Source of the DNA: a phage
Length of the DNA: 64,000 nt
Reading direction: 5' to 3' (one strand)
Assembly (NCBI GenBank): GCA_011939005.1
Contig: GCA_011939005.1_4858.1
Shown: piece by piece, positions 17,822-53,269 of the stretch
Position numbering within the stretch: the stretch's first letter is position 1
Layout: each line of letters opens with the position of its first letter
Program-made: the position numbers and the translations under genes
The notes under the pieces: generated by a model
What the model was told of the DNA's origin: nothing
The model's database searches: none
The model's input: the letters and a program-made list of their open reading frames with translations, nothing else

Positions 17822-19174
17822 TTAGGAAGAAGTCGCCTGACTAAGCTTCGCAGAAGCCACACGCAGGTCATTAGAAAGATAGCGCTCCATCGTACGCTGA
17901 TAATCCACCCCAGCACGTTCACGGCGACCGCCAGGGGTCAGCGTTTTCATGATGAAGCTAAAGACGTTGTCTTTGTCTTTCACGGTTTTCAGTAGTTCGT
18001 CGATAGACGCAATGCCCTGCAGAATACGTTTACGATGTTCGTTCGCTTCTTTCGTGGTACTGCCTTTTAAGGTGTTCAGCTCTTCCACTAAGTTACGACG
18101 CATCGTCTCAAAACGTTCCTGCGGCGGATCGTAGATGGTGTTGCGTGGGTCGTTCACAATCAGGCCGAACGCGACTGAGATAGTCGTGAAGAACAGGCCA
18201 ACTGGATTAGTCGAAGCCACAATCAGCAGCGAAACGTTAAGCATCTCCAGCATCAGATGCACGCCGTAGTTCATGTACGACGCGTTCCGGCAGAGATAGA
18301 ATTGAGACGTTTCGATTTTGTACAGGGCTGACGCCAGGTACGGGGCTGCACCAAAGCGAGCTGCGAAGTCATCTGCAGCACGTTCCCAGGTACGGTTAGC
18401 GAACCCTTCCGAACCGGTAACAAACGGACGCTCAAGCAGAATGTCTGTCACTAGATGCATGTAGATGTTCTCTTTAGACATCTCTTTGCAGATAGTTTCC
18501 GGCTGATTCACTTTGGTGTTCAGCATACGTTCAACGTCTTTTACGACTTTTAAACGCACGGTCGGGTCTTCTGTTTGCATCATGCGGTTCGCTGCAGCAT
18601 CCGCAATCAGGTTCGTTACTACCGTACGCATCAAGGTACGGAAATAGTAATAGATGTGGCCGACTTCATGTAGAATAATCGCCGCGACTTCTAAATCCGT
18701 TAACTCGATACCGGTCAGTAGTTTCGGGGTCAGCCAAAGTGGGGACGGCACCTTGCTGAGTTCGCCTGAAAGCTTCGCATTTTTATCGTCGAACTCGCCG
18801 TTCAGCTCGTTCTCTTTTAAGAACTTACTGTAGACATCCAGGTCGATGTTACCCTGCACCATCTTGCGTTGCAGGTCGGCGATGATTGGGTTGTTCGCGT
18901 CGAGCTTCGGTGGCTCCACACCCGCAAACACAACGTCCGCCACACCTAAGTCGGACCCGTTACGAGGCAGGACTGTAATACCGTTGTTGTCAAAGACCCA
19001 GGCAGCAATACCAGAACTCTGATAACCCGCTGGCGAGAAGTCGCCCGCATCACGGAACTTACGTACCACTTCCGCCAAAGAGGCGAGTTTCTTTTTATCT
19101 TGGAATCCGATGGATTCCGAGGCCACGGCTTTCGCGTCGGCCAACGAGGTTATGTGCTTTTGCCAGTGTCCCAT
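17822..19174 (-). CDS. HExxH zinc-metallopeptidase-like membrane protein
   Basis: AAIILHEVGHIYYY contains HExxH; hydrophobic stretch LLIVASTNPVGLFFTTISVAFGLIV. Confidence 0.4.
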   Translation of the reverse strand: MGHWQKHITSLADAKAVASESIGFQDKKKLASLAEVVRKFRDAGDFSPAGYQSSGIAAWVFDNNGITVLPRNGSDLGVADVVFAGVEPPKLDANNPIIADLQRKMVQGNIDLDVYSKFLKENELNGEFDDKNAKLSGELSKVPSPLWLTPKLLTGIELTDLEVAAIILHEVGHIYYYFRTLMRTVVTNLIADAAANRMMQTEDPTVRLKVVKDVERMLNTKVNQPETICKEMSKENIYMHLVTDILLERPFVTGSEGFANRTWERAADDFAARFGAAPYLASALYKIETSQFYLCRNASYMNYGVHLMLEMLNVSLLIVASTNPVGLFFTTISVAFGLIVNDPRNTIYDPPQERFETMRRNLVEELNTLKGSTTKEANEHRKRILQGIASIDELLKTVKDKDNVFSFIMKTLTPGGRRERAGVDYQRTMERYLSNDLRVASAKLSQATSS

Positions 19175-19244
19175 TTAGACGTTCCTTTTAGAAAATACGT
19201 TACCCACAAATCAGTATAGCAGACACCATATTTGAGAGTAGACC

Positions 19245-21029
19245 ATGGAAATCAATACCTATTACGCACCCGAGGATGTCATCGCTAAAGAGTGCAAGCA
19301 CGTCGCTTATGCGACGGACGAAGAAAAAGAAAATGACTTTGTCCTCATCAAAGAGGTCATCCATACTAAGGATGGCAGGCTTATCCCGCGCTTGGTAATG
19401 CGTGAGAATTTAAAGCGTCCGGTGTACGTTACCCGTGAAGAATATCGTAACCACCAGGAGAAAAAAGAGTTCGAAGAAAAAGGAAAATGTCAAGAACTCT
19501 GGACTACTGATGCGCAGATGGCGAAGACGTTGCAGATGGGTTTAGGTGCACGTTTCCCTGACCCGAAAAAGAACCTGCGCCGAGTCTGTACTAGCCCGTA
19601 CGTTTATTGGGCCGACTTACCGATTACCAGCTGGATTAAACAGAAATACTTAAAGCGCTGGCCGAACAATATCAGTCCTAACCGTCTTTGCGTATACGAC
19701 GTGGAGACTAACGAAATGGACGGCACGAAGGAACCGTGGATCGTGTCATTTATCTTAGACGATGAAATCCATTTCTTTGGTGCTAAGAACTACATGGACC
19801 GCATCGGTAAAAACGCGGAAGAAGTCATTCTCAAAAAAGCGCAGGAACTCTTAAGCAAAATCGAATTCGATGAGAAAGACAAAAAGACTGGCGAAAAGGT
19901 GACAAAGACCAAAGACATTATCAGCGGTTATAAAATATTCACCTATACCTGCGCTACGGCAGGGCAGTGCATCGTCAGGATGTTCGAAGAAATTCATCCA
20001 CGTCTTCCTGATTTGCTGGTCGCATGGAACCACCAGTTCGATATTTCACGCATGTTGGAAACCTTGCAGAAAGAAGGTATCGATCCACTGGGCGTCTTTA
20101 ACCATCCGGATGTTCCGGAGAAATACCGTCGTCTATGGTTTAAAGAAGACCAGGCGAACAAAAAGACAGAATCCAAGTCACTCACCAAAGCACCGTCACA
20201 ACAGTGGCACGTACTCTACTGTACTGCGTCTTTCTACTGTGTGGATGCCATGGTGCTGTTTCGTTCGTTGCGTGTCCACGAAGGGCAACGTCCTTCGTAC
20301 AAGTTATCTGCCATACTGTACACCGAACTCGGTTTACACAAACTCGACATTCCTGGACTGCCGTATGAAGATAACCTGCAATGGCACATAAAAGCACAAC
20401 GGGACTACCCTGCCGAATATGCCGTATACAACATGATGGATAACTTGTTAATCGTGTTGCTGGATAAGAAGACGAACGACCTGTCTTCAGCAATATCCAT
20501 TCTGGCAGGTTTCTCAATGTACGATATCTTCCCGTCGCTACCAAAACGTATCTGCGTGGCCTTTACCTATTATCTGTATGACAAAGGATACGTCATCGGT
20601 TCCGTAGGGTCTGCAATGCGTAACGATTACGATGAAGAGGTTATCGGTACAGACGGTTGGATTGTTACCCTGACAGCATGTATGAATGCTGAGAACGGTC
20701 TGAATAACATTCTGGAGGAGATTGACGAATATTACTCTGCGTTCCGTGGACAAACTGCGGATGCGGACTTAACCCAGGCTTACCCATCGGCCACAAACAT
20801 GATGAACCAGTCTCGTGAGACCACACTCATTGAGCTGCTATCCATCAATGGGGTTAGTGAAGAGATTCGACGTCGCACGGGCGTCAACTTAACTGCTGGG
20901 CGAGTTAATGCCATGGAAATAGCGACAGACTTCTTCTGCTTACCGGACAAAGACACTGTCCTGTCTACGTTCTTACGTAAGCAAGGGGAAGTAGTGACAG
21001 AGCCTATGGAGTACATCTGCGGGTTCTAA
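19245..21029 (+). CDS. DEDD-type 3'-5' exonuclease domain protein
   Basis: Exo I-like VYDVETNE, Exo II-like WNHQFDISRM, Exo III-like YAVYNMMD in correct order. Confidence 0.5.
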   Translation: MEINTYYAPEDVIAKECKHVAYATDEEKENDFVLIKEVIHTKDGRLIPRLVMRENLKRPVYVTREEYRNHQEKKEFEEKGKCQELWTTDAQMAKTLQMGLGARFPDPKKNLRRVCTSPYVYWADLPITSWIKQKYLKRWPNNISPNRLCVYDVETNEMDGTKEPWIVSFILDDEIHFFGAKNYMDRIGKNAEEVILKKAQELLSKIEFDEKDKKTGEKVTKTKDIISGYKIFTYTCATAGQCIVRMFEEIHPRLPDLLVAWNHQFDISRMLETLQKEGIDPLGVFNHPDVPEKYRRLWFKEDQANKKTESKSLTKAPSQQWHVLYCTASFYCVDAMVLFRSLRVHEGQRPSYKLSAILYTELGLHKLDIPGLPYEDNLQWHIKAQRDYPAEYAVYNMMDNLLIVLLDKKTNDLSSAISILAGFSMYDIFPSLPKRICVAFTYYLYDKGYVIGSVGSAMRNDYDEEVIGTDGWIVTLTACMNAENGLNNILEEIDEYYSAFRGQTADADLTQAYPSATNMMNQSRETTLIELLSINGVSEEIRRRTGVNLTAGRVNAMEIATDFFCLPDKDTVLSTFLRKQGEVVTEPMEYICGF

Positions 21030-21080
21030 AACAAAAAAAGAAAGGCCTCTCTACCCTAGGGTAGAGAGGTACTTTTATTT
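21030..21080. terminator. bidirectional intrinsic terminator
   Basis: CCTCTCTACCCTAGGGTAGAGAGG palindromic hairpin with A-run before and T-run after, between convergent genes. Confidence 0.75.
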
Positions 21081-21579
21081 AACCGCCAAAGGCGTGCATA
21101 ACCAGCGAACGCAGGTCCGGGTCGTTCAGGCGACGGGCCAGGCGGTCAACATCGTTGGTATCACGAAAACGGCCTTTATCGGCGCAACGTGCGTAACGAA
21201 TCAGCATGTTAATAAAGATAACGAAGACTTCACGCTCGTCACGATTCGGGAAGTTCTCACTGATACGGTTATTAGCAGCCGGTGCGTAGAAAATACCGTT
21301 ACGGTGCTTATTAGCCGCTTCTACAAAGGCGTAGAAACCGTCCAGGAAGGCCTGACCGCGCAGTTTAAACAGCTCACGGAAAGAGTGATGCAGCTTATTA
21401 TACGCATCTTTCTCAGCCTGGGTACCAGATGCTTTGCGTGGACCGGCATTGTTACCTGCTTCATCGAGCATCGTGGTGATCAGTTTAACACGATATTGGT
21501 CGTCGTTGCTGTAAGAAGCGCTATCACGGACCACGCCTTCTGTACGCGGGTCAAGGGTAGTAGTGTCTTTCTTAGTCAT
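21079..21579 (-). CDS. hypothetical protein
   Basis: ORF track start 21654 overlaps upstream gene; ATG at 21579 with AAGGA upstream preferred. Confidence 0.45.
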   Translation of the reverse strand: MTKKDTTTLDPRTEGVVRDSASYSNDDQYRVKLITTMLDEAGNNAGPRKASGTQAEKDAYNKLHHSFRELFKLRGQAFLDGFYAFVEAANKHRNGIFYAPAANNRISENFPNRDEREVFVIFINMLIRYARCADKGRFRDTNDVDRLARRLNDPDLRSLVMHAFGG

Positions 21580-21592
21580 GAGGAAACAATCC

Positions 21593-22891
21593 TTAGGTGA
21601 TGTGGAATTTAGGGATGTACTCTTTAACCACGGTTTCACGACCGTGCATCGCACCCATTGCAGTGGTCATAACGTTCGAGAAGCCGGAAGAGATATCCGC
21701 AGCGATTGCCCGTGGCTCTTCTGCTTTGTGTGCAGAGGAGCACGCCGCACAACAGTCTACGTGACCTTGCTGACATAAGATGGGTCGGCGGAGTCGAACA
21801 ACTTTACCAAATTGAGTTTTCAAATACTCTTCGGTGAGTTGGGTAACTTTACCGTTAACCATCGCGTTCATGCCAACATAACGCTTGTAGTTATACTGGT
21901 TAATTACAACTGCATGTGTCAGTTTTGTCCCGCAATCACCAGGTACGATTTTGTGGTTCTGGAAGATCATCTGGATGATACGTACTTGCTCACCACCCTT
22001 AGCGGTTTCTGCACCACGCATGAAGGAACCTTCACGAGTGTCATTGAACTTCTCTACCAGGTACTTCATCCCGGTCTGATCAACTTCCATCAGACTCGTT
22101 GGGATTAAGGTAAAATCTGCACCTTCTTTAAAAGCGGTCTGAATACCATACATCAGCATCAGCTTACGGCGACGCATACGCGCTTTAGGCGAGCTGTAGA
22201 ACTCAACGGACTGGTCGCCACTCAACCACTCTTTATCAAGTTCGTCGAGAGCTTTTTCAATCATAACGATAACCGCAGGGTTATCCAGTTCGTCTTTGTG
22301 CTTCAACAGCAACGCATCACGTACCTTATACGCGTCAGGATGCGTTGTAAGGCTTCTAATTGTTCCTGTTGGGACAATCCCACGACACAACGGAGCAAGC
22401 TCGTGTAGACCCCCTACAAAGCGTCCTATCATGTACGGTCGAATCGCGTCTTCGTTGTCTGGATCGGTGTCATCATATTCCACACAACGCTCATACATCT
22501 CTTTACGGTAGGCTAGTGGGTCACGAGACTCTGCCAGATACGGGAGACGGGTACCGAAAGCGTAATAGATAGCAATCCAGTTAAAGACATAGCGACCCAC
22601 GGTAGTCGGAATGGGACCAGCTAAACCTGGGTACATCTCAGGACGCAATTCAAACTGCTCTTCCGGCACGAACAGCCCTTCATCTTTTTTGCACCCTTCA
22701 ATCGGCACCCATTTAATTTCTTCGTTTTCCCAGTAGTGGGGCAAGCCGTCAATGTAGTTCAGGTCGTATTGCTCAGGTGGCTCACCTTTTTCATTAAAGA
22801 TAGCCACGTTGAAAACCGCAATACGCCACACCAGTCTACGCCAAGCTTCTGCTTTACACGCAGCGACCAGATAATCAATCTTGTTCATCAT
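21593..22891 (-). CDS. hypothetical protein (432 aa)
   Basis: ORF. Confidence 0.5.
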   Translation of the reverse strand: MMNKIDYLVAACKAEAWRRLVWRIAVFNVAIFNEKGEPPEQYDLNYIDGLPHYWENEEIKWVPIEGCKKDEGLFVPEEQFELRPEMYPGLAGPIPTTVGRYVFNWIAIYYAFGTRLPYLAESRDPLAYRKEMYERCVEYDDTDPDNEDAIRPYMIGRFVGGLHELAPLCRGIVPTGTIRSLTTHPDAYKVRDALLLKHKDELDNPAVIVMIEKALDELDKEWLSGDQSVEFYSSPKARMRRRKLMLMYGIQTAFKEGADFTLIPTSLMEVDQTGMKYLVEKFNDTREGSFMRGAETAKGGEQVRIIQMIFQNHKIVPGDCGTKLTHAVVINQYNYKRYVGMNAMVNGKVTQLTEEYLKTQFGKVVRLRRPILCQQGHVDCCAACSSAHKAEEPRAIAADISSGFSNVMTTAMGAMHGRETVVKEYIPKFHIT

Positions 22892-43230: not shown

Positions 43231-44589
43231 CCTCCCTAACTTTCACTAGGGCACAGACCATACCTTAGCCATGAGCTTTCGCTTTTAGGCTCCTCCCCAC
43301 TTCGGTGCTATTCTAAGCACCTACGAGCATTTCAGCTCCGGTCGTTGAACGTTCCTCTTACGAGGCTTCGCTGCTGATTACCCATTGTTAAAACCCTTAG
43401 CAGTATTGTTTAGCATAGGTCATCTCATTACTTGTTTCCGACTTTCGTCTCCACATGGGCAAATGAGCTTTAGGGGTTCCCAGCAATTCAGGGAGATACA
43501 CATCAGAGGTTTCCCGTCTGATGGGGCAAGGCTATTCTGCTGTTAAATATTGAACTTCAAATTGTTTGTACTTTCCGGTTTGTGAGACTGCTTTGGCCAC
43601 AGTGTTTCTTTTCACACCAATCGCGTTTGAAAACTCTTGTAAAGAATTCCAAATGGTTTTGATGTTAGTGGTCGTATCAGTCACACGCACCATCGACGGT
43701 ACACGTTTTGGCATTTGTGATTGTGGTCTGGGTTTGCGGAGATCGATCATGTCAGTTATGGCAACATCGATATCCACCATGTACCACGCCTCATATCCAA
43801 ACTTAGTCAAATCGACGGAACCGCCGTTGAGATGGGAATAGATGAGGTGTGGTTTTATACCCACGTATTCGGCTGCTGCCGGTACAGACGAGAACAGGAA
43901 ATATGGTTCCTTACCAACTTTTCTGATGACCAGTCCTTTATTACCTGGTCCTGAGTTCTTACCAATAGAATTCTTGGTGAGAATCCAGTCGTCTTCCGGT
44001 ACCTTGACTTCAAACACATCATTTAGCGTGTATTGACGATTAAGCCCACGTGCGATCGAGCTTGAAACCAAGTGCCGATTAACGCCGATATACTCAGCCG
44101 CCTTAGTCATGCTACGGAACTGAACTATATCGCCGGTCTCGAGATTTCTGACATCGACAATAATGTTGTCAGTTCTTAGACCAGTATCGAAAGCATGATT
44201 AACATTTTCCTTTCGATAACACCACTCAAGGTTTACCACAGATGGATTACTCTTAACACCATCACGATGGTTAACCTCGTCACCACATTTATCCAGGAAC
44301 ACAGTCGCAACAATTCGATGTAAATGGGTTTCGCCTTTACAACCGCGCACTCCCAGGTATCCACTTTTGAGAATGAAGACTGGTAGCGGCGTGACCATAC
44401 CTTTTACTTTACAGTCGCCCAATGCATCAACAAAGAGATCACGATAGACTGGGTGTCTGTAATACCCCTTAAAAACATACGAGGGCTCTAAATCATCGCG
44501 TAGTTTCCTACTCAACTTTTCAATAATCACAATTTATTCCCTATTACCAGTCACCGACTAAGAATAAGGAATAGCAGAATAACACTTTT
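43231..44589 (-). mobile_element. putative group I intron (phage IA-like) carrying an HNH homing endonuclease ORF; boundaries approximate
   Basis: Splits a beta-prime-like coding sequence; ~300 nt non-coding RNA after the endonuclease ORF contains GUUCAACGACC (R-like) and UAUGGUCUGUGC (S-like) elements whose GACC/GGUC can pair as P7; candidate 5' exon ends in U and intron ends in G. Confidence 0.55.
43532..44530 (-). CDS. HNH homing endonuclease with NUMOD/IENR-type DNA-binding repeats
   Basis: HLHRIVA...VNHRDGVKSNPSVVNLEWCYRKENVNHA is an HNH motif; three helix-turn-helix-like repeats AAEYIGVNRHLV, AAEYVGIKPHLI, FSNAIGVKRNTV. Confidence 0.8.
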   Translation of the reverse strand: MIIEKLSRKLRDDLEPSYVFKGYYRHPVYRDLFVDALGDCKVKGMVTPLPVFILKSGYLGVRGCKGETHLHRIVATVFLDKCGDEVNHRDGVKSNPSVVNLEWCYRKENVNHAFDTGLRTDNIIVDVRNLETGDIVQFRSMTKAAEYIGVNRHLVSSSIARGLNRQYTLNDVFEVKVPEDDWILTKNSIGKNSGPGNKGLVIRKVGKEPYFLFSSVPAAAEYVGIKPHLIYSHLNGGSVDLTKFGYEAWYMVDIDVAITDMIDLRKPRPQSQMPKRVPSMVRVTDTTTNIKTIWNSLQEFSNAIGVKRNTVAKAVSQTGKYKQFEVQYLTAE

Positions 44590-45957
44590 ACCGTTAGCCA
44601 TCTTGATCACACGGTCAGAGATACGCAGCGAACACTGGTTAACATCGGTAACAACTTCGTCGATGAACAGCGTCTGAATAGACAACTGTACCAGCGTTGG
44701 GTTACGTAGCGGTATGACCATGATCCCAAGACCGCCTGGGGATTCACGAATCAGTTCTTTAAAGATTTCGTCTACAAGCGGGTCATACTGCATTGCCGCT
44801 TTTGCGACGATACGTTCACACTGCCGTGACGAATAACCGCGTCGTAGCAGTTTGTTCTCGATGTGGGTCGACATCAACCCAACCATCCAACGCCATGGTG
44901 CTTTTAACTTCCAGGCATCGTGTGGTTCTGAGATAGGTGAGATGGTTGCACGACCACCGAACGGGATGTGGGTAGAACCCAATTTCGCACGATAGTCACC
45001 CGGTTTACCTTCCATAGACTCACGACGGAAGTCCATGTGGAAGTACGTTAGCTGACGGTTCGCCTTCAAAGCACGACTAATCAGAAAACGTGGTTCGATC
45101 GCTTTACGCCGCGTATAGAGCAACGCGATATTTTTCACCGCGTCAATAGCACCCGTGAACACTGGGTCTACCATGACACCACGACGACCTTCCTCAGTAA
45201 CGATAAGTTTAGAGGAGATTAGCGGTAAGTGTCTTGGGAAGAATGCATGGCGTTGCGTTTCGAATAGCTCCTTCCATTGTAAACGTAAGCGTTCACCTTC
45301 AGCGGCGTTATGCCGATTAGGTGCGAAGATTTCCTTCCAGGCTTCTGGCGTGGTAAGGATGTTAAAGATACTAACGTGGTTATCAACCAGATTGCGCAAG
45401 CCACGAACGAAACCATGTTCTTCCAATACACGTTTCACAGCATGTGCGCGTTTACCGTCTGGTTCTTCTATACGGTAATACGGGTCAATCATCCACATCA
45501 TCAAGTCATTACCGCGTTCGATAGTGACCTTGTTACGTTCAAACTTCTTCAACTTGCTATTAAAGAAAGCATTGAACATTGCCCAGAATCGTGGGTTGAC
45601 GAAGTTACCCATTTCATCGGGTGCACGTAACCAGACATCGGATTCAATTCGATGTTCAGTTACAACATAGCCACACGTCGGACACTTACAACCGAGATTG
45701 TAACGATGCGCGATCGGTGCCGGACAATCCAAACTACAAATCGGTGCAGAGTTCAGTTCTTCGTCAACGATTCTGTTCTGTACCATGCGATCGATAAGTT
45801 CAGCAACCTCGATCGCATCCCCGTTAACGGCGACATCGTTAATAATAGTGGGTGGTTTAATACCTTTGGCAGCAGCTTCTATTTGCAAATCGGACAAATA
45901 GTTATCCTGACTAACCAACCGGCCGGATATTCCGTAGAATTTTGGTACCTTTCTCAC
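44551..45957 (-). CDS. RNA polymerase beta-prime-like subunit, N-terminal part (5' exon; ORF reads on into the intron to the stop at 44551)
   Basis: Zinc-ribbon-like CSLDCPAPIAHRYNLGCKCPTCGYVVT and RNPTLVQLSIQTL resembling beta-prime RxPTLHRLGIQAF. Confidence 0.7.
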   Translation of the reverse strand: MRKVPKFYGISGRLVSQDNYLSDLQIEAAAKGIKPPTIINDVAVNGDAIEVAELIDRMVQNRIVDEELNSAPICSLDCPAPIAHRYNLGCKCPTCGYVVTEHRIESDVWLRAPDEMGNFVNPRFWAMFNAFFNSKLKKFERNKVTIERGNDLMMWMIDPYYRIEEPDGKRAHAVKRVLEEHGFVRGLRNLVDNHVSIFNILTTPEAWKEIFAPNRHNAAEGERLRLQWKELFETQRHAFFPRHLPLISSKLIVTEEGRRGVMVDPVFTGAIDAVKNIALLYTRRKAIEPRFLISRALKANRQLTYFHMDFRRESMEGKPGDYRAKLGSTHIPFGGRATISPISEPHDAWKLKAPWRWMVGLMSTHIENKLLRRGYSSRQCERIVAKAAMQYDPLVDEIFKELIRESPGGLGIMVIPLRNPTLVQLSIQTLFIDEVVTDVNQCSLRISDRVIKMANGKSVILLFLILSR

Positions 45958-46039: not shown

Positions 46040-47893
46040 TTACAGTTTGAAGTTGCTCAGAGTCACGCCCAGACCGAAATCGGAACCGCTTGCAGACAGG
46101 CCGTTGCCAGACAGCGTGAAGTCTTCCCCACCGTTGTTGAAGAACAGAGAGGTCGCCATCGTGTTGTAGGCATTTACACCAGTCATAGACCAGGTGCAGT
46201 TGTTACGGACGAAGTCCAGCAGGCATTTACCGAAGATCGGGTTGATAGCCATATCCAGAGATTCACCGGTAGCTTGCGGTGCTTTGGATGCGAACAGAGA
46301 AGCGGCCAGTTTCAGCATGTAGATACGCTGTTGACGCTCGTTCAGTTCACGGTGGCTGTAGGACTGTGCGTTCAGGTAGCTATAGACGTCGTTCGCGTTA
46401 TCACCCAGTTTGGTAACAACGGAAATCAGGTCCATATCCTGGAAGCTACGTTTCTGTGCAGTACCGGTGTAAACACCGGAAACAGTCGGTACGGCTGCTT
46501 TCACGATGTGGCTGCAATGGATGGTACCATTGAAGGCATCGCCCAGCTGTGCTTTCAGTGCAGAAGCAAATACTGCAGTGAAGCTGGTCGCTGCAACAAC
46601 TTCGCCGTTCTGATCACGCGGGGACATGGAATTCAGAATAGCGAGCAGCTGTTTCAGAGAGTTGTCGTAACCGACCGCAATTTCAGACAGCAAAGTAGAC
46701 AGACCACCCAGGCCGTTACCGGCACGATGGCTAACTACCAGTGCTGCTTCACGCGGTGCGAACATATCCAGGCAACCTTCGATAGCTTCACGGCTACCGT
46801 CGATTTTGGATACATCAGGACGAGCGTCAGCACCCCAGGACAGGTATTCTGCCACACGGGAGAACTTGCGATCTTGTTTGTTCAGACGTTTCACAAACAG
46901 GTCACGCCAGCCACCGATTGCCGCGATTTCTGCAAATGCAGCCAGCAGCAGCAGTTGACGTTCATACGGTGCCATTGCACCTTCAGTTTGAGAATCGATC
47001 AGACTTACTACGATTTCAGCCTGCAGCTGTTTCAGGTCGTAGACGCCGTTAACGACAGGCTTCTGACCGGTGAAACGCATATTGACGAAACCGGTACCGG
47101 ATACACGCGGATACACCTGTACCTGATTGGTGTCCAGCAGAGTCGGAGTGGCGTCGGTTACGTTGCTTGGGCTGTGCTCAACGGTGATTGCGAAATCAGC
47201 ACGCTGTGCGTGGCCGTTAGCATCAACAACCGCACCATCTTCCAGCGGCATTACTGCGGCCTGATAACGGTCATGCTTACGCAGGTTCAGCGTACCCAGG
47301 TAGCCTGCGATACGACCGAAGATGCCCATCATCATCTGACCCATCAGAGTACGTGCCCACTCAGCATCCAGAACTTTACCCAGGTCTGGTACGGAGTTGA
47401 TGATCATGAAGTTCGCATTGGTCAGACCATGCGCTTCCATGATGTTTTTCTGTACTACTGCCAGCACGTCTTTGTTGAACAGTTCAGTGATGGTGTAGTA
47501 GTCTTCCTGGCCGTTGTTGGTAGTTTCTTTCAGACGCAGAGACTGACCGCGTTCAAAGAAGATGATACCGTACAGCCAGTGGCCCTGCCATTGGCCTGCG
47601 ACGTACGCCGCGGAACCCATTTCGTTACCCACGCCGACGATGGTGCCCCAGCGGAATGCGTTGAGGTATTCGTTGCTTTTCTTCAGCTCATCCAGGAGGT
47701 TGGTGAAGTGCATTGCATAGGTGCTGATGTTGCGGATGCCAAATGCGTTATCGAATTGGCTGACAGTAGAAGTACCCGGCACAGCAGTTTGCACTTTTAC
47801 AGTCTCGTTGCCCAGACCGCCCAGTGGTGCGGTGTCTTGAGTCTGAGTGTTGTTCTGCTGAGCGTTGTTGTTAGAGTCAACGATTTTTACCAT
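46040..47893 (-). CDS. abundant 617-aa protein: candidate phage-nucleus shell (chimallin-like) or major structural protein
   Basis: AAGGAA Shine-Dalgarno, promoter-like motif 45 nt upstream, strong terminator downstream, sits beside the beta-prime-like gene; assignment is by context only. Confidence 0.4.
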   Translation of the reverse strand: MVKIVDSNNNAQQNNTQTQDTAPLGGLGNETVKVQTAVPGTSTVSQFDNAFGIRNISTYAMHFTNLLDELKKSNEYLNAFRWGTIVGVGNEMGSAAYVAGQWQGHWLYGIIFFERGQSLRLKETTNNGQEDYYTITELFNKDVLAVVQKNIMEAHGLTNANFMIINSVPDLGKVLDAEWARTLMGQMMMGIFGRIAGYLGTLNLRKHDRYQAAVMPLEDGAVVDANGHAQRADFAITVEHSPSNVTDATPTLLDTNQVQVYPRVSGTGFVNMRFTGQKPVVNGVYDLKQLQAEIVVSLIDSQTEGAMAPYERQLLLLAAFAEIAAIGGWRDLFVKRLNKQDRKFSRVAEYLSWGADARPDVSKIDGSREAIEGCLDMFAPREAALVVSHRAGNGLGGLSTLLSEIAVGYDNSLKQLLAILNSMSPRDQNGEVVAATSFTAVFASALKAQLGDAFNGTIHCSHIVKAAVPTVSGVYTGTAQKRSFQDMDLISVVTKLGDNANDVYSYLNAQSYSHRELNERQQRIYMLKLAASLFASKAPQATGESLDMAINPIFGKCLLDFVRNNCTWSMTGVNAYNTMATSLFFNNGGEDFTLSGNGLSASGSDFGLGVTLSNFKL

Positions 47894-48078: not shown

Positions 48079-49167
48079 GTGGAATCTAAGGAGTCTGCCA
48101 TGTTCAGCCAAGCCGAGTTAAACCAAGTGGCCATAAAGGGTCACAGCACGGACCCCTCCGCTATAACATTAGCGGCTCACGTAAAAAACAACAGCCAGCG
48201 TATACGCAACTACTTCGAACAGCTTAATCGCAGTGCTGGTAATGGCCATTTGTTGCAACAGGTGTTGTCTGCCATCGGCTATGCCGGTGAACCAGAGTAC
48301 GAAGACATCGAATGGGCTTGCCGTCGCAAGCTTGTTCAGATCGGTAACGCCTTACGCTTGACATCTGTTGGTGAGTACGGTCAAATCTTTAATAGCAAGT
48401 TTATCCAGGGCCAAGATGAGGTAATCTCTCTCGTAGCCCGCCCAGTAAATCCAGACCTTTCGTTCCGCGACTACACCCCCGCCCGTTACCTCTACCATGA
48501 GTATACCAACCTCAATTGGAAGTTCGGTGACGGACGGCCCCGAGGTGTTACGGTGATCGAAATCAACCTGGTTGCTTTGCTTTGGCAATATGTCAAAGGC
48601 CAGCAGCACTACAGTCGCGGTACCGAACCTATTGCCACACCTGTGTATCTCCAACGACATGTGATCTCTCGCATGTTGCCGAGCTACATGGATATCGCCT
48701 TTGTAAATATACATCGCGCGATAGCCTTCGGGAAAGAGATTGAACCGGATGAAACATTACGTGTCATTCCTGTTCCGCCGCTTCAAGCTTTAGCTGTGAA
48801 GCACGCAAAAGGCATCCGTAGTAAACTACTGGCTGCCAACCCGTTACCGGGACAAGTCTTAAACAACATCCCGTTGTTCTTCCAACACCCTGATGAAGAA
48901 GGCCACACAGCACTGGAACTGATTGTCTTTCGAGAACCAGGTCAAACACTGCAGAACACCTGGCACCAGAACATGGTGAACTGGTACTGGGCACTGTTTT
49001 GTCTTCAATACAACCAGGGGAATATGGAGAAACACAAACGTACGATGTTGGTTGATTTGGCGCGTTATGTGGACTCTAAAGTCCTCACACGTTTGACCAA
49101 ATCCTTCTATAACTTTATCCAACGCGATTTGATTATCCCGTTGACGACAGAGCTAGAAGAAAAATAA
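48079..49167 (+). CDS. hypothetical protein (362 aa)
   Basis: Plus-strand ORF with AAGGAG Shine-Dalgarno, terminator downstream. Confidence 0.55.
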   Translation: MESKESAMFSQAELNQVAIKGHSTDPSAITLAAHVKNNSQRIRNYFEQLNRSAGNGHLLQQVLSAIGYAGEPEYEDIEWACRRKLVQIGNALRLTSVGEYGQIFNSKFIQGQDEVISLVARPVNPDLSFRDYTPARYLYHEYTNLNWKFGDGRPRGVTVIEINLVALLWQYVKGQQHYSRGTEPIATPVYLQRHVISRMLPSYMDIAFVNIHRAIAFGKEIEPDETLRVIPVPPLQALAVKHAKGIRSKLLAANPLPGQVLNNIPLFFQHPDEEGHTALELIVFREPGQTLQNTWHQNMVNWYWALFCLQYNQGNMEKHKRTMLVDLARYVDSKVLTRLTKSFYNFIQRDLIIPLTTELEEK

Positions 49168-50487: not shown

Positions 50488-52767
50488 TTACTCCTCCGCT
50501 TCTTCCCCATCTTCTTCCTCTCCATCACGTTCAGATTTCTTAACGTACTCACCGCTACCTAATTCTTCCTTGACGGAATCTACAGACTCACCGTAGTAAT
50601 CCGAAAGCAGACGAGTTCTGTTCTTGTCCATCATGAACACACCCAGACATTCCAAGATGTGATAGTAAGGTTCTACTGTGGAGAATGCGCTTCGACGTGT
50701 GTCTGCAGCATCAATCAGCTCCGGCGGAATACCGAAGTTTTCCACCAGGAACTCTGGCAGTATCAGAGTGCGATAGGTACGATAGTTGTTTTCTTCGAAC
50801 CACCGTGTTGCAGTGGTCTTAATCATCGGGTCTTTAATGTTTTCCAGCCACTCTTTAACGGCTGTTTTGTTCTCCAGGTTTACCGGAAGTTTCACGGCGT
50901 CATAAGGCGGTTCGTCCAGGTAGCCGTACTTCGGTCCAAAGATAGCGTTGTACATGCGGTGGTAGTGGTAGCTCTTTTCATCATCTTCAGAGTACGCACT
51001 ACGGTCTTTGACGTTGGTTGTTTTCAGGTAGCCTGCTTTACCAGCGCGAATAGAATCCACCACAACGTGCTCAATTGCAGCAACCTTTTCCAGCAGAGGC
51101 AGAATCTTAATCTTATCGCCGCGCGCTACAATCTCACAGAGTTCTTTAATCGTGCGTTTGAACTCTTTCATGACCACCGGAGGAATGTTCGACGTACGTA
51201 AAGACACGCCCTTAACTTCTAACTCAGGGTCAGACTTCAACTGCCCTTCCTGGCCAGTGATGATGGAGAAATAGTGTTTTGCTTTCGTGGTTAACGCAAA
51301 GGAGTCGAACTTAAATTCGTTCTTCATTGCGTACAAGAACAGACGCTCTTTCGCCACACCGATGTTCGCCGACATACTCGCCATCAGATGACGTAAGTGT
51401 TGGGTTGCGATATAAATCATCGCATCCGATACGCGCGTAGCTTCACGACCGTAATGTTGACCGGTATACCACTGTGCCCACCACTGTGCAGTCATCATCG
51501 TGGAGTCGGTATCAGATACCACACCAACACGACGAACTACGTCGGGCATCCTGGCAATGTTGATTGGCAGGTTTTTGGTGGTCAGGATGTTACGAATCAA
51601 ACATGCGTACTTACCGATGGTTTTCTGCAGATATACAGCTGAGCGAATCAGCTCTTTGTATTTTTCCTGCTTATCCCACGGTTCCGCTTTGTTCGTGTTT
51701 TCGTCTTTAAGTTTAACGTCAGAGAACGACTTACCTAACGGCACGATATCAGTACGGAACTGCGAGATAATAATCTGCATATCGCCGTCGATGGAGCGCT
51801 CGGCGGCGTCCCAATCTGTGATCTCGTCTTCCATCTCCTCAGCAATCAGCGCACCGATAAACCCACGCATGAATTCATCGTTGTATTTTGCCAAGTGATA
51901 GAAATCGCCCATGTAGACAAACGCAGCACGCACTAATGGGCTACAGTTACCTACGTAGTGGCGGATAAACTCCAGTCCTTCATCATTGCGGAAATAGAAG
52001 TCTGCAGAGTACGTAACCACTTCCATAACCTCGTCCACAGTTGGGTAGTGGAGGTTATAGAGTTCCATACACTTCTTGAACTCCGCAAAGTTAGTCAGTG
52101 TACCAATAGACAGTAAGTGATCGATAACACGGGACGGTGTATCGTAGTGACGATTACCACCCAGTAGACGTTCGTTGCCAGCGTTACCGAACGATGTAGC
52201 CGTACGGCAGGTTGACGTCAATACAGAGTGCGAAGACTGGTTAAAGATTACCGTGTACGGTGATGAGAAAGCACCAGACATCCCGTTGTTCAGCGTTTTA
52301 ACAGCATTCTGTTCGTTCTTTTTGTTAATACGTAAAACTTCGTTGCCTGCAGCACCGGCTGCATACATCTCTTTCTTAACAACCGCACGCTTACGCACGT
52401 TCTCTGCGGTAAATTCAGCAAGCTTAGAGCGCTTGACGTGTTCCGGCAAATAGAAAGTCAACGACGGTGCAGAAATGATCTGCTTATCAATCACTGTACG
52501 GAACAGTTTATCTACCGTGGTGTATTTTTCTTCGCGATCGCCGGTCTTTTGATTGCGCACCCACATCTTACACACGGGGAATTCGTGTACTAACTCACCA
52601 CCAGGTTGGAACATTTCTTCGACCTGCTGTCGACAGAACTCCAAAGAATATTTCCCGTTGGTGACGGTATGAATGTAGAGCGCCAGTTGTTCGTAGTACG
52701 CATCGATAACGTCAATGTCGCGATGATACTCGTCTTGACTAAGACGAAATGGTGAATTGTAGTCCAC
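50488..52767 (-). CDS. polymerase-like protein (possible family-B-type nucleotidyltransferase), acidic C-terminus
   Basis: VGVVSDTDSTMM resembles pol motif C (YGDTDS); KTLNNGMSG loosely resembles motif B; C-terminus GEEEDGEEAEE. Confidence 0.35.
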   Translation of the reverse strand: MDYNSPFRLSQDEYHRDIDVIDAYYEQLALYIHTVTNGKYSLEFCRQQVEEMFQPGGELVHEFPVCKMWVRNQKTGDREEKYTTVDKLFRTVIDKQIISAPSLTFYLPEHVKRSKLAEFTAENVRKRAVVKKEMYAAGAAGNEVLRINKKNEQNAVKTLNNGMSGAFSSPYTVIFNQSSHSVLTSTCRTATSFGNAGNERLLGGNRHYDTPSRVIDHLLSIGTLTNFAEFKKCMELYNLHYPTVDEVMEVVTYSADFYFRNDEGLEFIRHYVGNCSPLVRAAFVYMGDFYHLAKYNDEFMRGFIGALIAEEMEDEITDWDAAERSIDGDMQIIISQFRTDIVPLGKSFSDVKLKDENTNKAEPWDKQEKYKELIRSAVYLQKTIGKYACLIRNILTTKNLPINIARMPDVVRRVGVVSDTDSTMMTAQWWAQWYTGQHYGREATRVSDAMIYIATQHLRHLMASMSANIGVAKERLFLYAMKNEFKFDSFALTTKAKHYFSIITGQEGQLKSDPELEVKGVSLRTSNIPPVVMKEFKRTIKELCEIVARGDKIKILPLLEKVAAIEHVVVDSIRAGKAGYLKTTNVKDRSAYSEDDEKSYHYHRMYNAIFGPKYGYLDEPPYDAVKLPVNLENKTAVKEWLENIKDPMIKTTATRWFEENNYRTYRTLILPEFLVENFGIPPELIDAADTRRSAFSTVEPYYHILECLGVFMMDKNRTRLLSDYYGESVDSVKEELGSGEYVKKSERDGEEEDGEEAEE

Positions 52768-52814
52768 GTCTGGCCCCTTGGTTTTTTACTCAGCTATAAG
52801 ACTTGCGGGATACG

Positions 52815-52853
52815 TGAAAAAAGAAAAAAAATAACCCACTCCGAAGAGTGGGC
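52815..52853 (-). terminator. intrinsic terminator, UUCG loop on minus strand
   Basis: A-rich run then CCCACTC-cgaa-GAGTGGG on plus strand. Confidence 0.65.
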
Positions 52854-52858
52854 TTACT

Positions 52859-53269
52859 TTAACCGGCAATACTCTCAACGATTTCAAAATCGACGTCATT
52901 GAAACCATTGGCAGCCAGGGCACGTTTAAGGTCGTCAATCTCCTGTTTGTTATCCAGGGTGACGGTGAAGCGCACCTTCGTGTTTTCGATAATCTGAACA
53001 TCACGAATCCAGGCATCGGCAGCGACTTTTGGTTTGCCGTCAACACCTTTGAAAATCAGATACGTGTATTTGTTCACGTTATCTTCTGGCTGAGAAACAA
53101 TGGAAGAGTAGATATTCTTCTGCTCCGCCATCACATCCATATAACTTTTGGCCATTTCATAGCCAACGCCGGTTGCCAGAATAATTACACGCGTCTCTTG
53201 CCCTTTCAAAGGGGTGTCGTAAACAATGTTAACTTTTTGCCCAGCGACCAGTGTGCGTAAATCGAACAT
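52859..53269 (-). CDS. hypothetical protein (136 aa)
   Basis: ORF, first of a small-gene cassette. Confidence 0.5.
   Translation of the reverse strand: MFDLRTLVAGQKVNIVYDTPLKGQETRVIILATGVGYEMAKSYMDVMAEQKNIYSSIVSQPEDNVNKYTYLIFKGVDGKPKVAADAWIRDVQIIENTKVRFTVTLDNKQEIDDLKRALAANGFNDVDFEIVESIAG

Follow-up and report, generated by a model that had tools for sequence, protein, structure and literature searches.

The two-subunit PolB1 of Methanothermobacter thermautotrophicus, a family B DNA polymerase (PolB) of another lineage whose break point lies further towards motif C than the one described here, is the product of two different genes and becomes active only once its subunits have assembled. A split polymerase is said to have been described first for OBP, by Cornelissen et al. 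2012. Kazlauskas and Venclovas (2011) also described the split polymerase, and equivalent pairs are found in phiKZ-related giant phages (phiKZ gp82 and gp50; EL ORF051 and ORF021). The SPN3US proteins gp18 and gp44 have been named a "split subunit DNA polymerase" (PMC5694885; the pair also in PMC3201878 and PMC7824862), and no clamp was detected in the phiKZ-like group (PMC3201878, PMC7824862). A different split is seen in T4-like phages, where the gp43A/gp43B pair of Aeromonas phages 25 and 44RR and the Acinetobacter 'split DNA polymerase' likewise distribute a PolB over two polypeptides: the first chain bears motif A, the second bears motifs B and C. In the Aeromonas phages the two halves purify together and are active. 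The genes of these T4-like pairs are adjacent, with a short untranslated spacer or a homing endonuclease gene between them, and the split is sporadic within an otherwise typical T4-type PolB.

The window analysed here, a stretch of 64,000 nucleotides, is a Salmonella phage SPN3US-like genome and contains orthologues of both published SPN3US subunits. Instead of the usual one-polypeptide PolB architecture it has two ORFs, whose coordinates we confirmed and which lie 29.5 kb apart on opposite strands:

19245..21029, plus strand: exo chain, split PolB subunit 1, orthologue of SPN3US gp44, 594 aa
50488..52767, minus strand: pol chain, split PolB subunit 2, orthologue of SPN3US gp18, 759 aa

Protein identity to SPN3US is 100% for gp44 and about 99% for gp18, the GTG start of the pol ORF matches the SPN3US annotation, and RefSeq labels both chains 'DNA polymerase'. 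The two ORFs are thus the two parts of a split family B DNA polymerase that has already been published for SPN3US-like giant phages. The preliminary description had linked an ORF with DEDD exonuclease motifs to a DTDS-bearing, polymerase-like ORF about 30 kb off on the other strand, and had proposed either a split or a highly diverged replicase; both alternatives hold, as the pair is the gp44/gp18 split polymerase (PMC5694885) and the pol half falls in the divergent family PF20286. The genes, their Pfam and PHROG families and the distant, opposite-strand layout are those already described for SPN3US, and the difference from the phiKZ-related literature is in reading only: where that literature, as far as searched, sees an exonuclease chain and a complete polymerase chain, our alignments place polymerase motif A on the exonuclease chain.

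We propose that the two ORFs encode the subunits of one replicative PolB. Chain 1 (19245-21029) would provide the PolB N-terminal domain, a putative DEDDy 3'-5' proofreading exonuclease and the first palm strand with motif A, including the probable catalytic, metal-binding residue D508 and Y513. Chain 2 (50488-52767) would provide the fingers with the triphosphate-binding residues R127, K131 and K157, a long helical insert of about 220 residues, the remaining palm with motif C (D419/D421) and KxY, and the thumb. Since the break would lie inside the palm, the polymerase active site would form only when the two chains assemble, making the enzyme an obligate heterodimer. We put the probability of this reading at roughly 0.8; it draws on homology, motif content and conservation, collinearity with RB69 gp43, predicted folds and gene co-occurrence. 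With rather less assurance, we also lean towards a composite catalytic centre throughout the clade, with motif A contributed by the 'exonuclease' subunit and fingers and motif C by the 'polymerase' subunit.

The relevant features of the exo-chain C-terminus are:

20646..21026, plus strand: C-terminal tail, residues 468-594, not confidently folded by AlphaFold in isolation
20760..20825, plus strand: polymerase motif A, D506-A-D508-LTQA-Y513-P514-S...N521-QS-RETT

D506, D508, Y513, P514 and N521 are invariant in 48/48 exo-chain homologues, and equivalents of the motif occur in EL gp51 (D493) and 201phi2-1 gp144 (D626). In whole-protein profile comparison motif A (D508-LTQAYPS) is aligned to RB69 D411-LTSLYPSIIRQVNISPET (D411-LTSLYPS), so that Y513 pairs with Y416 and Y513-P514 with Y416-P417. 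The C-terminal fragment alone still aligns motif A with RB69 403-434 (P 3.8e-4). The AlphaFold single-chain model gives pLDDT below 50 for residues 468-481, 502-531, 547-553 and 589-594, which fits a segment that may fold only against the partner chain. The preliminary description had placed exonuclease and polymerase functions in separate, distant genes. The two distant genes stand, but the division of functions between them is unclean because the exo ORF also bears motif A of the polymerase.

The pol chain supplies the remaining polymerase motifs:

52270..52389, minus strand: fingers helices with R127, K131 and motif B (Q153, K157-TLNNGMS-G165)
51568..52230, minus strand: lineage-specific helical insert, about 220 aa, separating motifs B and C
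51499..51516, minus strand: motif C, S418-D419-T-D421-S-T423, invariant in 48/48, aligned to RB69 G-D621-T-D623-S
51271..51279, minus strand: KxY motif, K497-H-Y499, invariant, aligned to RB69 K706-R-Y708
50593..50616, minus strand: conserved C-terminal TRLLSDYY (S722 invariant), followed by an acidic tail

This ORF matches Pfam PF20286 (divDNApol, divergent family B DNA polymerase, group 1 jumbo phages) with an E-value of 2.9e-284 and 945.2 bits (gathering cut-off 25.7), residues 11-725 covering positions 3-705 of the 705 in the model; PF00136 matches weakly at residues 94-189. R127, K131, Q153, K157, N160, N161, S164 and G165 are invariant among pol homologues, and fragment alignment pairs R127/K131/K157 with RB69 R482/K486/K560. 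In the AlphaFold model two long helices (115-139 and 143-168) form the fingers, and residues 179-395 are entirely helical, where RB69 has only about 60 residues between motifs B and C. The counterpart of TRLLSDYY, 'TRLISDFY', was discussed by Kazlauskas and Venclovas as a possible clamp-binding variant.

A profile and structure comparison with PolBs was run on both ORFs, and RB69 gp43 is the top solved structure for each AlphaFold model. On this structural evidence the exo ORF is a PolB proofreading module, and the fold of the pol ORF is that of a PolB polymerase (palm, fingers and thumb). Searching PDB chains by sequence with both proteins gave nothing meaningful, and we found no solved structure of such a polymerase. 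The likeness to RB69/T4 gp43 extends to all six PolB motifs, the basic residues of the fingers and KxY, which follow in the same order. Unlike the window phage, RB69/T4 has a single chain of 903 aa, lacks the helical insert between motifs B and C and uses the gp45 sliding clamp.

Compared as whole profiles, the pol chain and the RB69 or T4-like profile reach hhalign probabilities of only 14-18%, so that fragment-wise and alternative alignments were needed. In these, pol residues 100-200 align to RB69 466-581 (P 4.7e-4) and residues 400-725 to RB69 617-773 (P 5.8e-4), and residues 1-115 have no match in PolB. Taken one by one, the pol-half matches are weak (P about 5e-4, hhalign probabilities 14-36%) and persuade mainly because they are collinear and because invariant residues pair with invariant residues. 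Read from these alignments, the break seems to lie at RB69 residues ~434-466, within the palm, and to divide the active site instead of falling at the border of the proofreading and polymerase domains. This is earlier than in the T4-like split, where the Acinetobacter 43A piece terminates at RB69 residue ~503. Further differences from the T4-like pairs are that some 30 kb separate the two genes of the window phage, which lie on opposite strands, that its pol half has diverged strongly and carries a 220-residue insert, and that the split is fixed throughout the clade.

The alternative that survives best, although we judge it improbable, is a self-sufficient pol chain holding both motifs A and C within 50488-52767, with the exo ORF a stand-alone proofreading exonuclease that associates only loosely in the replisome and its motif A-like stretch a docking relic. 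Two published analyses give the pol chain a complete palm or both catalytic aspartates: Kazlauskas and Venclovas placed the latter at D229 and D398 of the EL pol chain, and in the account of Iyer et al. the exonuclease is not fused to the polymerase but may join it as a standalone protein. A composite catalytic centre contradicts this published model with both aspartates (EL D229/D398) in the pol chain. When we checked D229 on EL ORF021, the residue proved not to be conserved: the column has D in 37/49 sequences and N in 12/49, including N226 in the window phage, which is unexpected for a metal ligand in a viable phage lineage. D229 is also out of PolB order, because it is located after motif B, and falls in an all-helical region. 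In favour of this alternative, the pol chain does have an invariant aspartate, D288, within the helical insert. The first 280 residues of the chain have no invariant Asp, and conservation, alignment columns and fragment-wise profile comparison revealed no motif A equivalent in it. A candidate near its N-terminus (D19-VIDAYY) was rejected as it is not conserved and has no profile match.

Further observations speak against a self-sufficient pol chain. The exo residues paired with RB69 D411 and Y416-P417 stay invariant down to 22% identity, the initial 115 pol residues have no PolB counterpart, and the single-chain model leaves the motif C hairpin unfolded, residues 420-423 having pLDDT below 50 and forming no beta-hairpin. 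Both orphan elements, residues 468-531 of the exo tail and residues 420-423 of the pol motif C hairpin, are thus low-confidence parts of otherwise confident single-chain models. Taken together, motif A on the exo chain, a pol chain that starts at the fingers and Asn in 12/49 sequences of the D229 column make the obligate heterodimer the most likely arrangement. We found no statement of a two-chain catalytic centre in the literature searched, a set outside which Cornelissen et al. 2012 falls.

Far less probable is the RNase alternative named in the preliminary description, in which the exo ORF would be a DEDD nuclease like RNase T, RNase D or oligoribonuclease, unrelated to the polymerase and unconnected with it. 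The three exonuclease motifs of the exo ORF are all present:

19698..19706, plus strand: ExoI, D152-V-E154, invariant in 48 homologues, aligned to RB69 D114-I-E116
20028..20042, plus strand: ExoII, N262-HQF-D266, D266 invariant and N262 at least 90% conserved, aligned to RB69 N217...D222
20427..20441, plus strand: ExoIII, Y395-NMM-D399, both residues invariant, aligned to RB69 Y323...D327

The acidic residues of all three are invariant in the alignment of 48 sequences, with identity as low as 22%, on which exo-chain conservation was scored, and hhalign pairs the motifs with RB69 D114/E116, N217/D222 and Y323/D327. The label 'ribonuclease H-like superfamily protein' on the orthologue in one related phage record might suggest an RNase, and the DEDD fold does lie within that superfamily. 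The exo model, mostly above pLDDT 90 over residues 11-450, nonetheless finds only PolBs among its top 50 Foldseek matches (RB69 gp43 at E 1.4e-12), in alignments of about 470 columns that include the PolB N-terminal domain. Its profile match to T4-like PolB (exo 128-531 to RB69 90-434; hhalign probability 99%, E 3.5e-18) runs on into motif A. The ORF also matches phrog_3011, 'DNA polymerase' (E 4e-251). A Pfam search recognised no family in the protein from the window itself; 7/48 of its relatives, and only these, match DNA_pol_B_exo1, and RNase families have no Pfam match among the family members. The phyletic pattern of the exo chain is, moreover, strictly common to the pol chain.

We further note that phage records number 295 for the exo chain and 301 for the pol chain, and that the two counts are the same within each of the seven largest genera. 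The two genes lie roughly 28-100 kb apart in about a dozen records common to both listings. The exo chain has 742 cluster representatives (50% identity) at E <= 1e-30; the best 150 of these 742 are all stand-alone proteins, with no fused, unsplit exo-pol relative among them. In the only long representative among the best 150, P0335 (894 aa), the C-terminal extension bears no relation to the pol chain. An artefact of assembly or annotation, or decay of one half into a pseudogene, is scarcely credible as an explanation of the split. Some SPFM-series records of close relatives do show the genes as about 30 BLAST pieces but both ORFs here are intact and equal in length to those of dozens of independent isolates, both chains are highly conserved with invariant catalytic residues, and the two-gene arrangement recurs in about 300 phage genomes and the exo chain in hundreds of metagenomic lineages.

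The surroundings of the two genes offer a possible regulatory link and a possible further partner:

19197..19219, plus strand: ACGT-N14-TATAG upstream of the exo-subunit gene, TATAG 30 nt before the ATG
52794..52815, minus strand: ACGT-N13-TATAG upstream of the pol-subunit gene, TATAG 31 nt before the GTG
52833-52854: terminator-like hairpin preceding the upstream motif of the pol gene
52859..53269, minus strand: SH3-fold gene, 136 aa, PF20287 SH3DP (E 3.2e-35), directly upstream of the pol gene

The bipartite motif is retained upstream of both orthologues in Erwinia phage Machina, and may act as a promoter that co-regulates the two subunit genes. The pattern ACGT-N13/14-TATAG was derived from these two upstream sequences themselves, and a scan of the window finds it 3 times, where 1.5 occurrences would be expected by chance on average. 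Downstream of the third copy is a 617-aa ORF with no PDB sequence match and no Pfam family. The SH3-fold product scores 120.9 bits against PF20287 (gathering cut-off 25), and the SH3DP/polymerase neighbourhood is conserved according to Iyer et al. This protein is a candidate accessory subunit of the polymerase and could be a third partner in the assembly.

As the split has been published for phiKZ-related giant phages, the finding as stated in the preliminary description adds no new biology; the split itself is already known, and the single added point seems to be that the break runs through the polymerase active site. The placement of motif A is relevant for expressing, assaying, inhibiting or modelling the replicase: if motif A resides on the 'exonuclease' chain, a gp18-type protein alone should be inactive and active-site models built from the pol chain alone would be wrong. 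Having been translated separately, the chains would need to find each other, and in nucleus-forming phages they would do so once imported into the phage nucleus. The same phages offer parallels: their multisubunit RNA polymerases are split, and SbcC and SbcD are encoded by separated genes. If correct, this reading would mean an obligate-heterodimer replicase with halves encoded tens of kilobases apart across about 300 sequenced phages, would concern more than 700 exo-chain lineages at 50% identity, and would provide a clean natural case in which an essential enzyme has its active site divided between the products of distant genes.

The exonuclease-like ORF (exo) and the polymerase-like ORF (pol) share 95-99% nucleotide identity with Salmonella phage SPN3US and its relatives (genus Seoulvirus). 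Their products are 100% (exo) and ~99% (pol) identical to the SPN3US proteins YP_009153338 (41224-43008) and YP_009153312 (11544-13823), which are encoded on opposite strands, are both labeled "DNA polymerase" in RefSeq and have split multisubunit RNA polymerase pieces and virion proteins among their gene neighbors.

The two polymerase genes and the elements around them
19245-21029, plus strand: exo ORF, 594 aa, with ExoI D152-x-E154, ExoII N262-xxx-D266 and ExoIII Y395-xxx-D399
50488-52767, minus strand: pol ORF, 759 aa, with S-D419-T-D421-S-T
52859-53269, minus strand: SH3DP ORF, 136 aa, directly upstream of pol; Pfam PF20287 'SH3 fold domain associated with phage DNA polymerases', E 3.2e-35
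52833-52854: terminator-like hairpin between the SH3DP ORF and pol
21045-21070, both strands: hairpin with a perfect 11-bp stem and T-runs on both strands, between exo and the convergent ORF 21079-21654
19197-19219, plus strand: ACGT-N13/14-TATAG before exo
52794-52815, minus strand: ACGT-N13/14-TATAG before pol
48161-48182, minus strand: sole further copy of this pattern in the window; a 617-aa ORF (46040-47893, phrog_8316) starts ~270 nt downstream of it

The DEDD motifs and the DTDS-bearing ORF ~30 kb away on the other strand, from which the preliminary description proposed a split or highly diverged replicase, are both present. The acidic residues of the exonuclease motifs and of DTD are invariant in alignments of 48 diverse homologues per ORF (lowest identity 22% for exo and 35% for pol). 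The proposal is supported by the SPN3US orthology, by a match of pol to Pfam PF20286 "divergent family B DNA polymerase" (E 2.9e-284), by matches to PHROG "DNA polymerase" families (exo E 4e-251, pol E 0) and by published work. Kazlauskas and Venclovas (PMC3201878) described a divergent family B polymerase (PolB) in phiKZ-like phages with exonuclease and polymerase on separate polypeptides, and Iyer et al. (PMC7824862) took SPN3US YP_009153312 itself as the type example and pointed to a separately located exonuclease gene and to a gene for an SH3-fold protein upstream of the polymerase. SPN3US gp18 and gp44 have been named a split subunit DNA polymerase (PMC5694885), phiKZ likewise has a split polymerase (PMC5105663), and a phiKZ preprint takes gp50 and gp82 as DNA polymerase proteins. 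The two-gene observation is confirmed and its interpretation supported; since the split polymerase has already been published, it is a correct rediscovery of a known feature.

AlphaFold models computed from the 48-homologue alignments reached mean pLDDT values of 84 (exo) and 85.5 (pol). In Foldseek comparisons with the PDB, the best 50 matches of the exo model are all family B polymerases, headed by the unsplit polymerase RB69 gp43 (E 1.4e-12, ~470 columns). The model thus identifies exo as a PolB N-terminal and proofreading module rather than an RNase. Pol has the polymerase fold of PolB, again with RB69 gp43 as its best match among solved structures; the structure comparison that the preliminary description had called for refutes neither assignment.

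When the family profiles are set against RB69 gp43 and a T4-like PolB profile (30 sequences), the break between the chains falls within the palm. Exo residues 128-531 correspond to RB69 90-434 (probability 99%, E 3.5e-18 against the T4-like profile), and the alignment runs beyond the exonuclease domain, via G-x-x-V-x-x-P, into motif A, where exo FRGQTADAD508LTQAYPSATNMMNQSRETT pairs with RB69 RYKYVMSFD411LTSLYPSIIRQVNISPET. The C-terminal 140 residues of exo alone again match RB69 403-434 best (P 3.8e-4). D506, D508, Y513, P514 and N521 are invariant in 48/48 homologues, and other exo chains carry counterparts of motif A (EL gp51 D493-VEGAYP, 201phi2-1 gp144 D626-IVSTYP). Pol residues 100-200 correspond to RB69 466-581, with invariant R127, K131, Q153, K157, N161 and G165 aligned to R482, K486, Q556, K560, N564 and G568, and residues 400-725 correspond to RB69 617-773 (motif C, KxY and the thumb start); residues 1-115 have no match in these profile comparisons. 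The three mapped segments are collinear with RB69 gp43, so the break falls at RB69 434-466, with motif A on one side of it and the fingers on the other.

T4-like phages also have a functioning PolB that is divided behind motif A, with motifs B and C on the second chain. In an Acinetobacter phage, a piece annotated "split DNA polymerase" stops at RB69 residue ~503, and in Aeromonas phage 25 the two halves, gp43A and gp43B, co-purify and have DNA-polymerising activity. The split genes are adjacent in T4-like phages, whereas they lie 29.5 kb apart in the window. In the otherwise confident single-chain models, pLDDT is below 50 in the exo tail (residues 468-481 and 502-531) and at pol motif C (residues 420-423), which lacks a beta-hairpin; suggestively, these weak parts are elements that would need each other, as fits a shared site.

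This placement conflicts with the published active-site model of Kazlauskas and Venclovas (PMC3201878), in which EL D229 and D398 are the catalytic aspartate pair. Position 398 of EL ORF021 corresponds to the second aspartate in DTD; position 229 belongs to the stretch QFAD229RD. D229 corresponds to N226 in the pol protein of the window, in a column with Asp in 37/49 and Asn in 12/49 sequences; it follows motif B, out of PolB order, and falls in an all-helical region of the AlphaFold model. These three observations make D229 doubtful as a metal ligand. Based on homology, conservation and collinearity, we give a probability of about 0.8 to a polymerase active site made up jointly by the two chains. 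That this reading is unpublished, the original OBP phage paper left aside, is less certain than its biology.

By tblastn, exo is found in 295 phage records and pol in 301, with equal counts for the two chains in each of the seven best-represented genera (Pseudomonas 81, Erwinia 62, Vibrio 23, Serratia 21, Aeromonas 20, Klebsiella 16, Ralstonia 13). In the roughly dozen records that are among the matches listed for both chains, the genes are ~28-100 kb apart and, wherever both strands are given, on opposite strands. Among 1.84 billion representatives, a profile search found 742 exo clusters with E <= 1e-30. Of these, the best 150 are all stand-alone proteins of ~490-680 aa matching through the profile end, except one of 894 aa whose extension is unrelated to pol; no exo-pol fusion occurs among them. 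The shared phyletic counts, distant genes and stand-alone exo representatives indicate that the split is old and fixed in the clade.

The exo match falls into 2-3 tblastn pieces in phiKZ-like Pseudomonas phages (PhiPA3, phiKZ-like records). In Pseudomonas phage 201phi2-1, gp144 (709 aa; 601-2730 of the sequence examined) carries a highly acidic stretch (DEEEEDDLEEDEEGED...) inserted between ExoII and ExoIII, which SPN3US-like phages lack. In the closely related Salmonella phages SPFM6, 9 and 12 (LR535905, LR535907, LR535911, others), both polymerase genes match in ~30 short BLAST pieces and the predicted proteins are garbled. These assemblies look frameshift-riddled, so their 'hypothetical protein' labels for the polymerase genes are not to be trusted.

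TATAG lies 30-31 nt before the start codons of both subunit genes, and in Erwinia phage Machina the ACGT-N13/14-TATAG pattern also precedes both orthologues, in spacers that have otherwise diverged. The pattern was taken from these upstream sequences themselves, and its three copies in the window are not a significant enrichment over the chance mean of 1.5; it hints at a candidate phage promoter common to both genes. The hairpin at 21045-21070 resembles a bidirectional intrinsic terminator. ORF 17822-19174, next to exo (minus strand, 450 aa; SPN3US label 'putative virion structural protein'), contains HEVGH and has a Peptidase_M48 match below threshold (E 0.0025; 18.1 bits, cut-off 20.3), and may encode a zinc metalloprotease-like virion protein. 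The pol chain ends in a conserved TRLLSDYY (50593-50616, minus strand), followed by a Glu/Asp-rich tail to 50491 (residues 745-759 with pLDDT <50). Motifs of this type have been discussed as possibly clamp-binding-like (PMC3201878), and this phage group has no known sliding clamp (PMC3201878, PMC7824862).

The evidence best supports an obligate two-chain family B replicase, in which both chains would contribute to one polymerase active site. The SH3DP protein is a candidate accessory or third subunit, in line with the suggestion of Iyer et al. ORFs 21593-22891 and 44551-45957 (both minus strand) have their matches in two distinct PHROG 'RNA polymerase beta subunit' families, phrog_2962 and phrog_2987. 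They encode parts of the split multisubunit RNA polymerases that phages of this group typically carry, a further case of one enzyme made from scattered genes.
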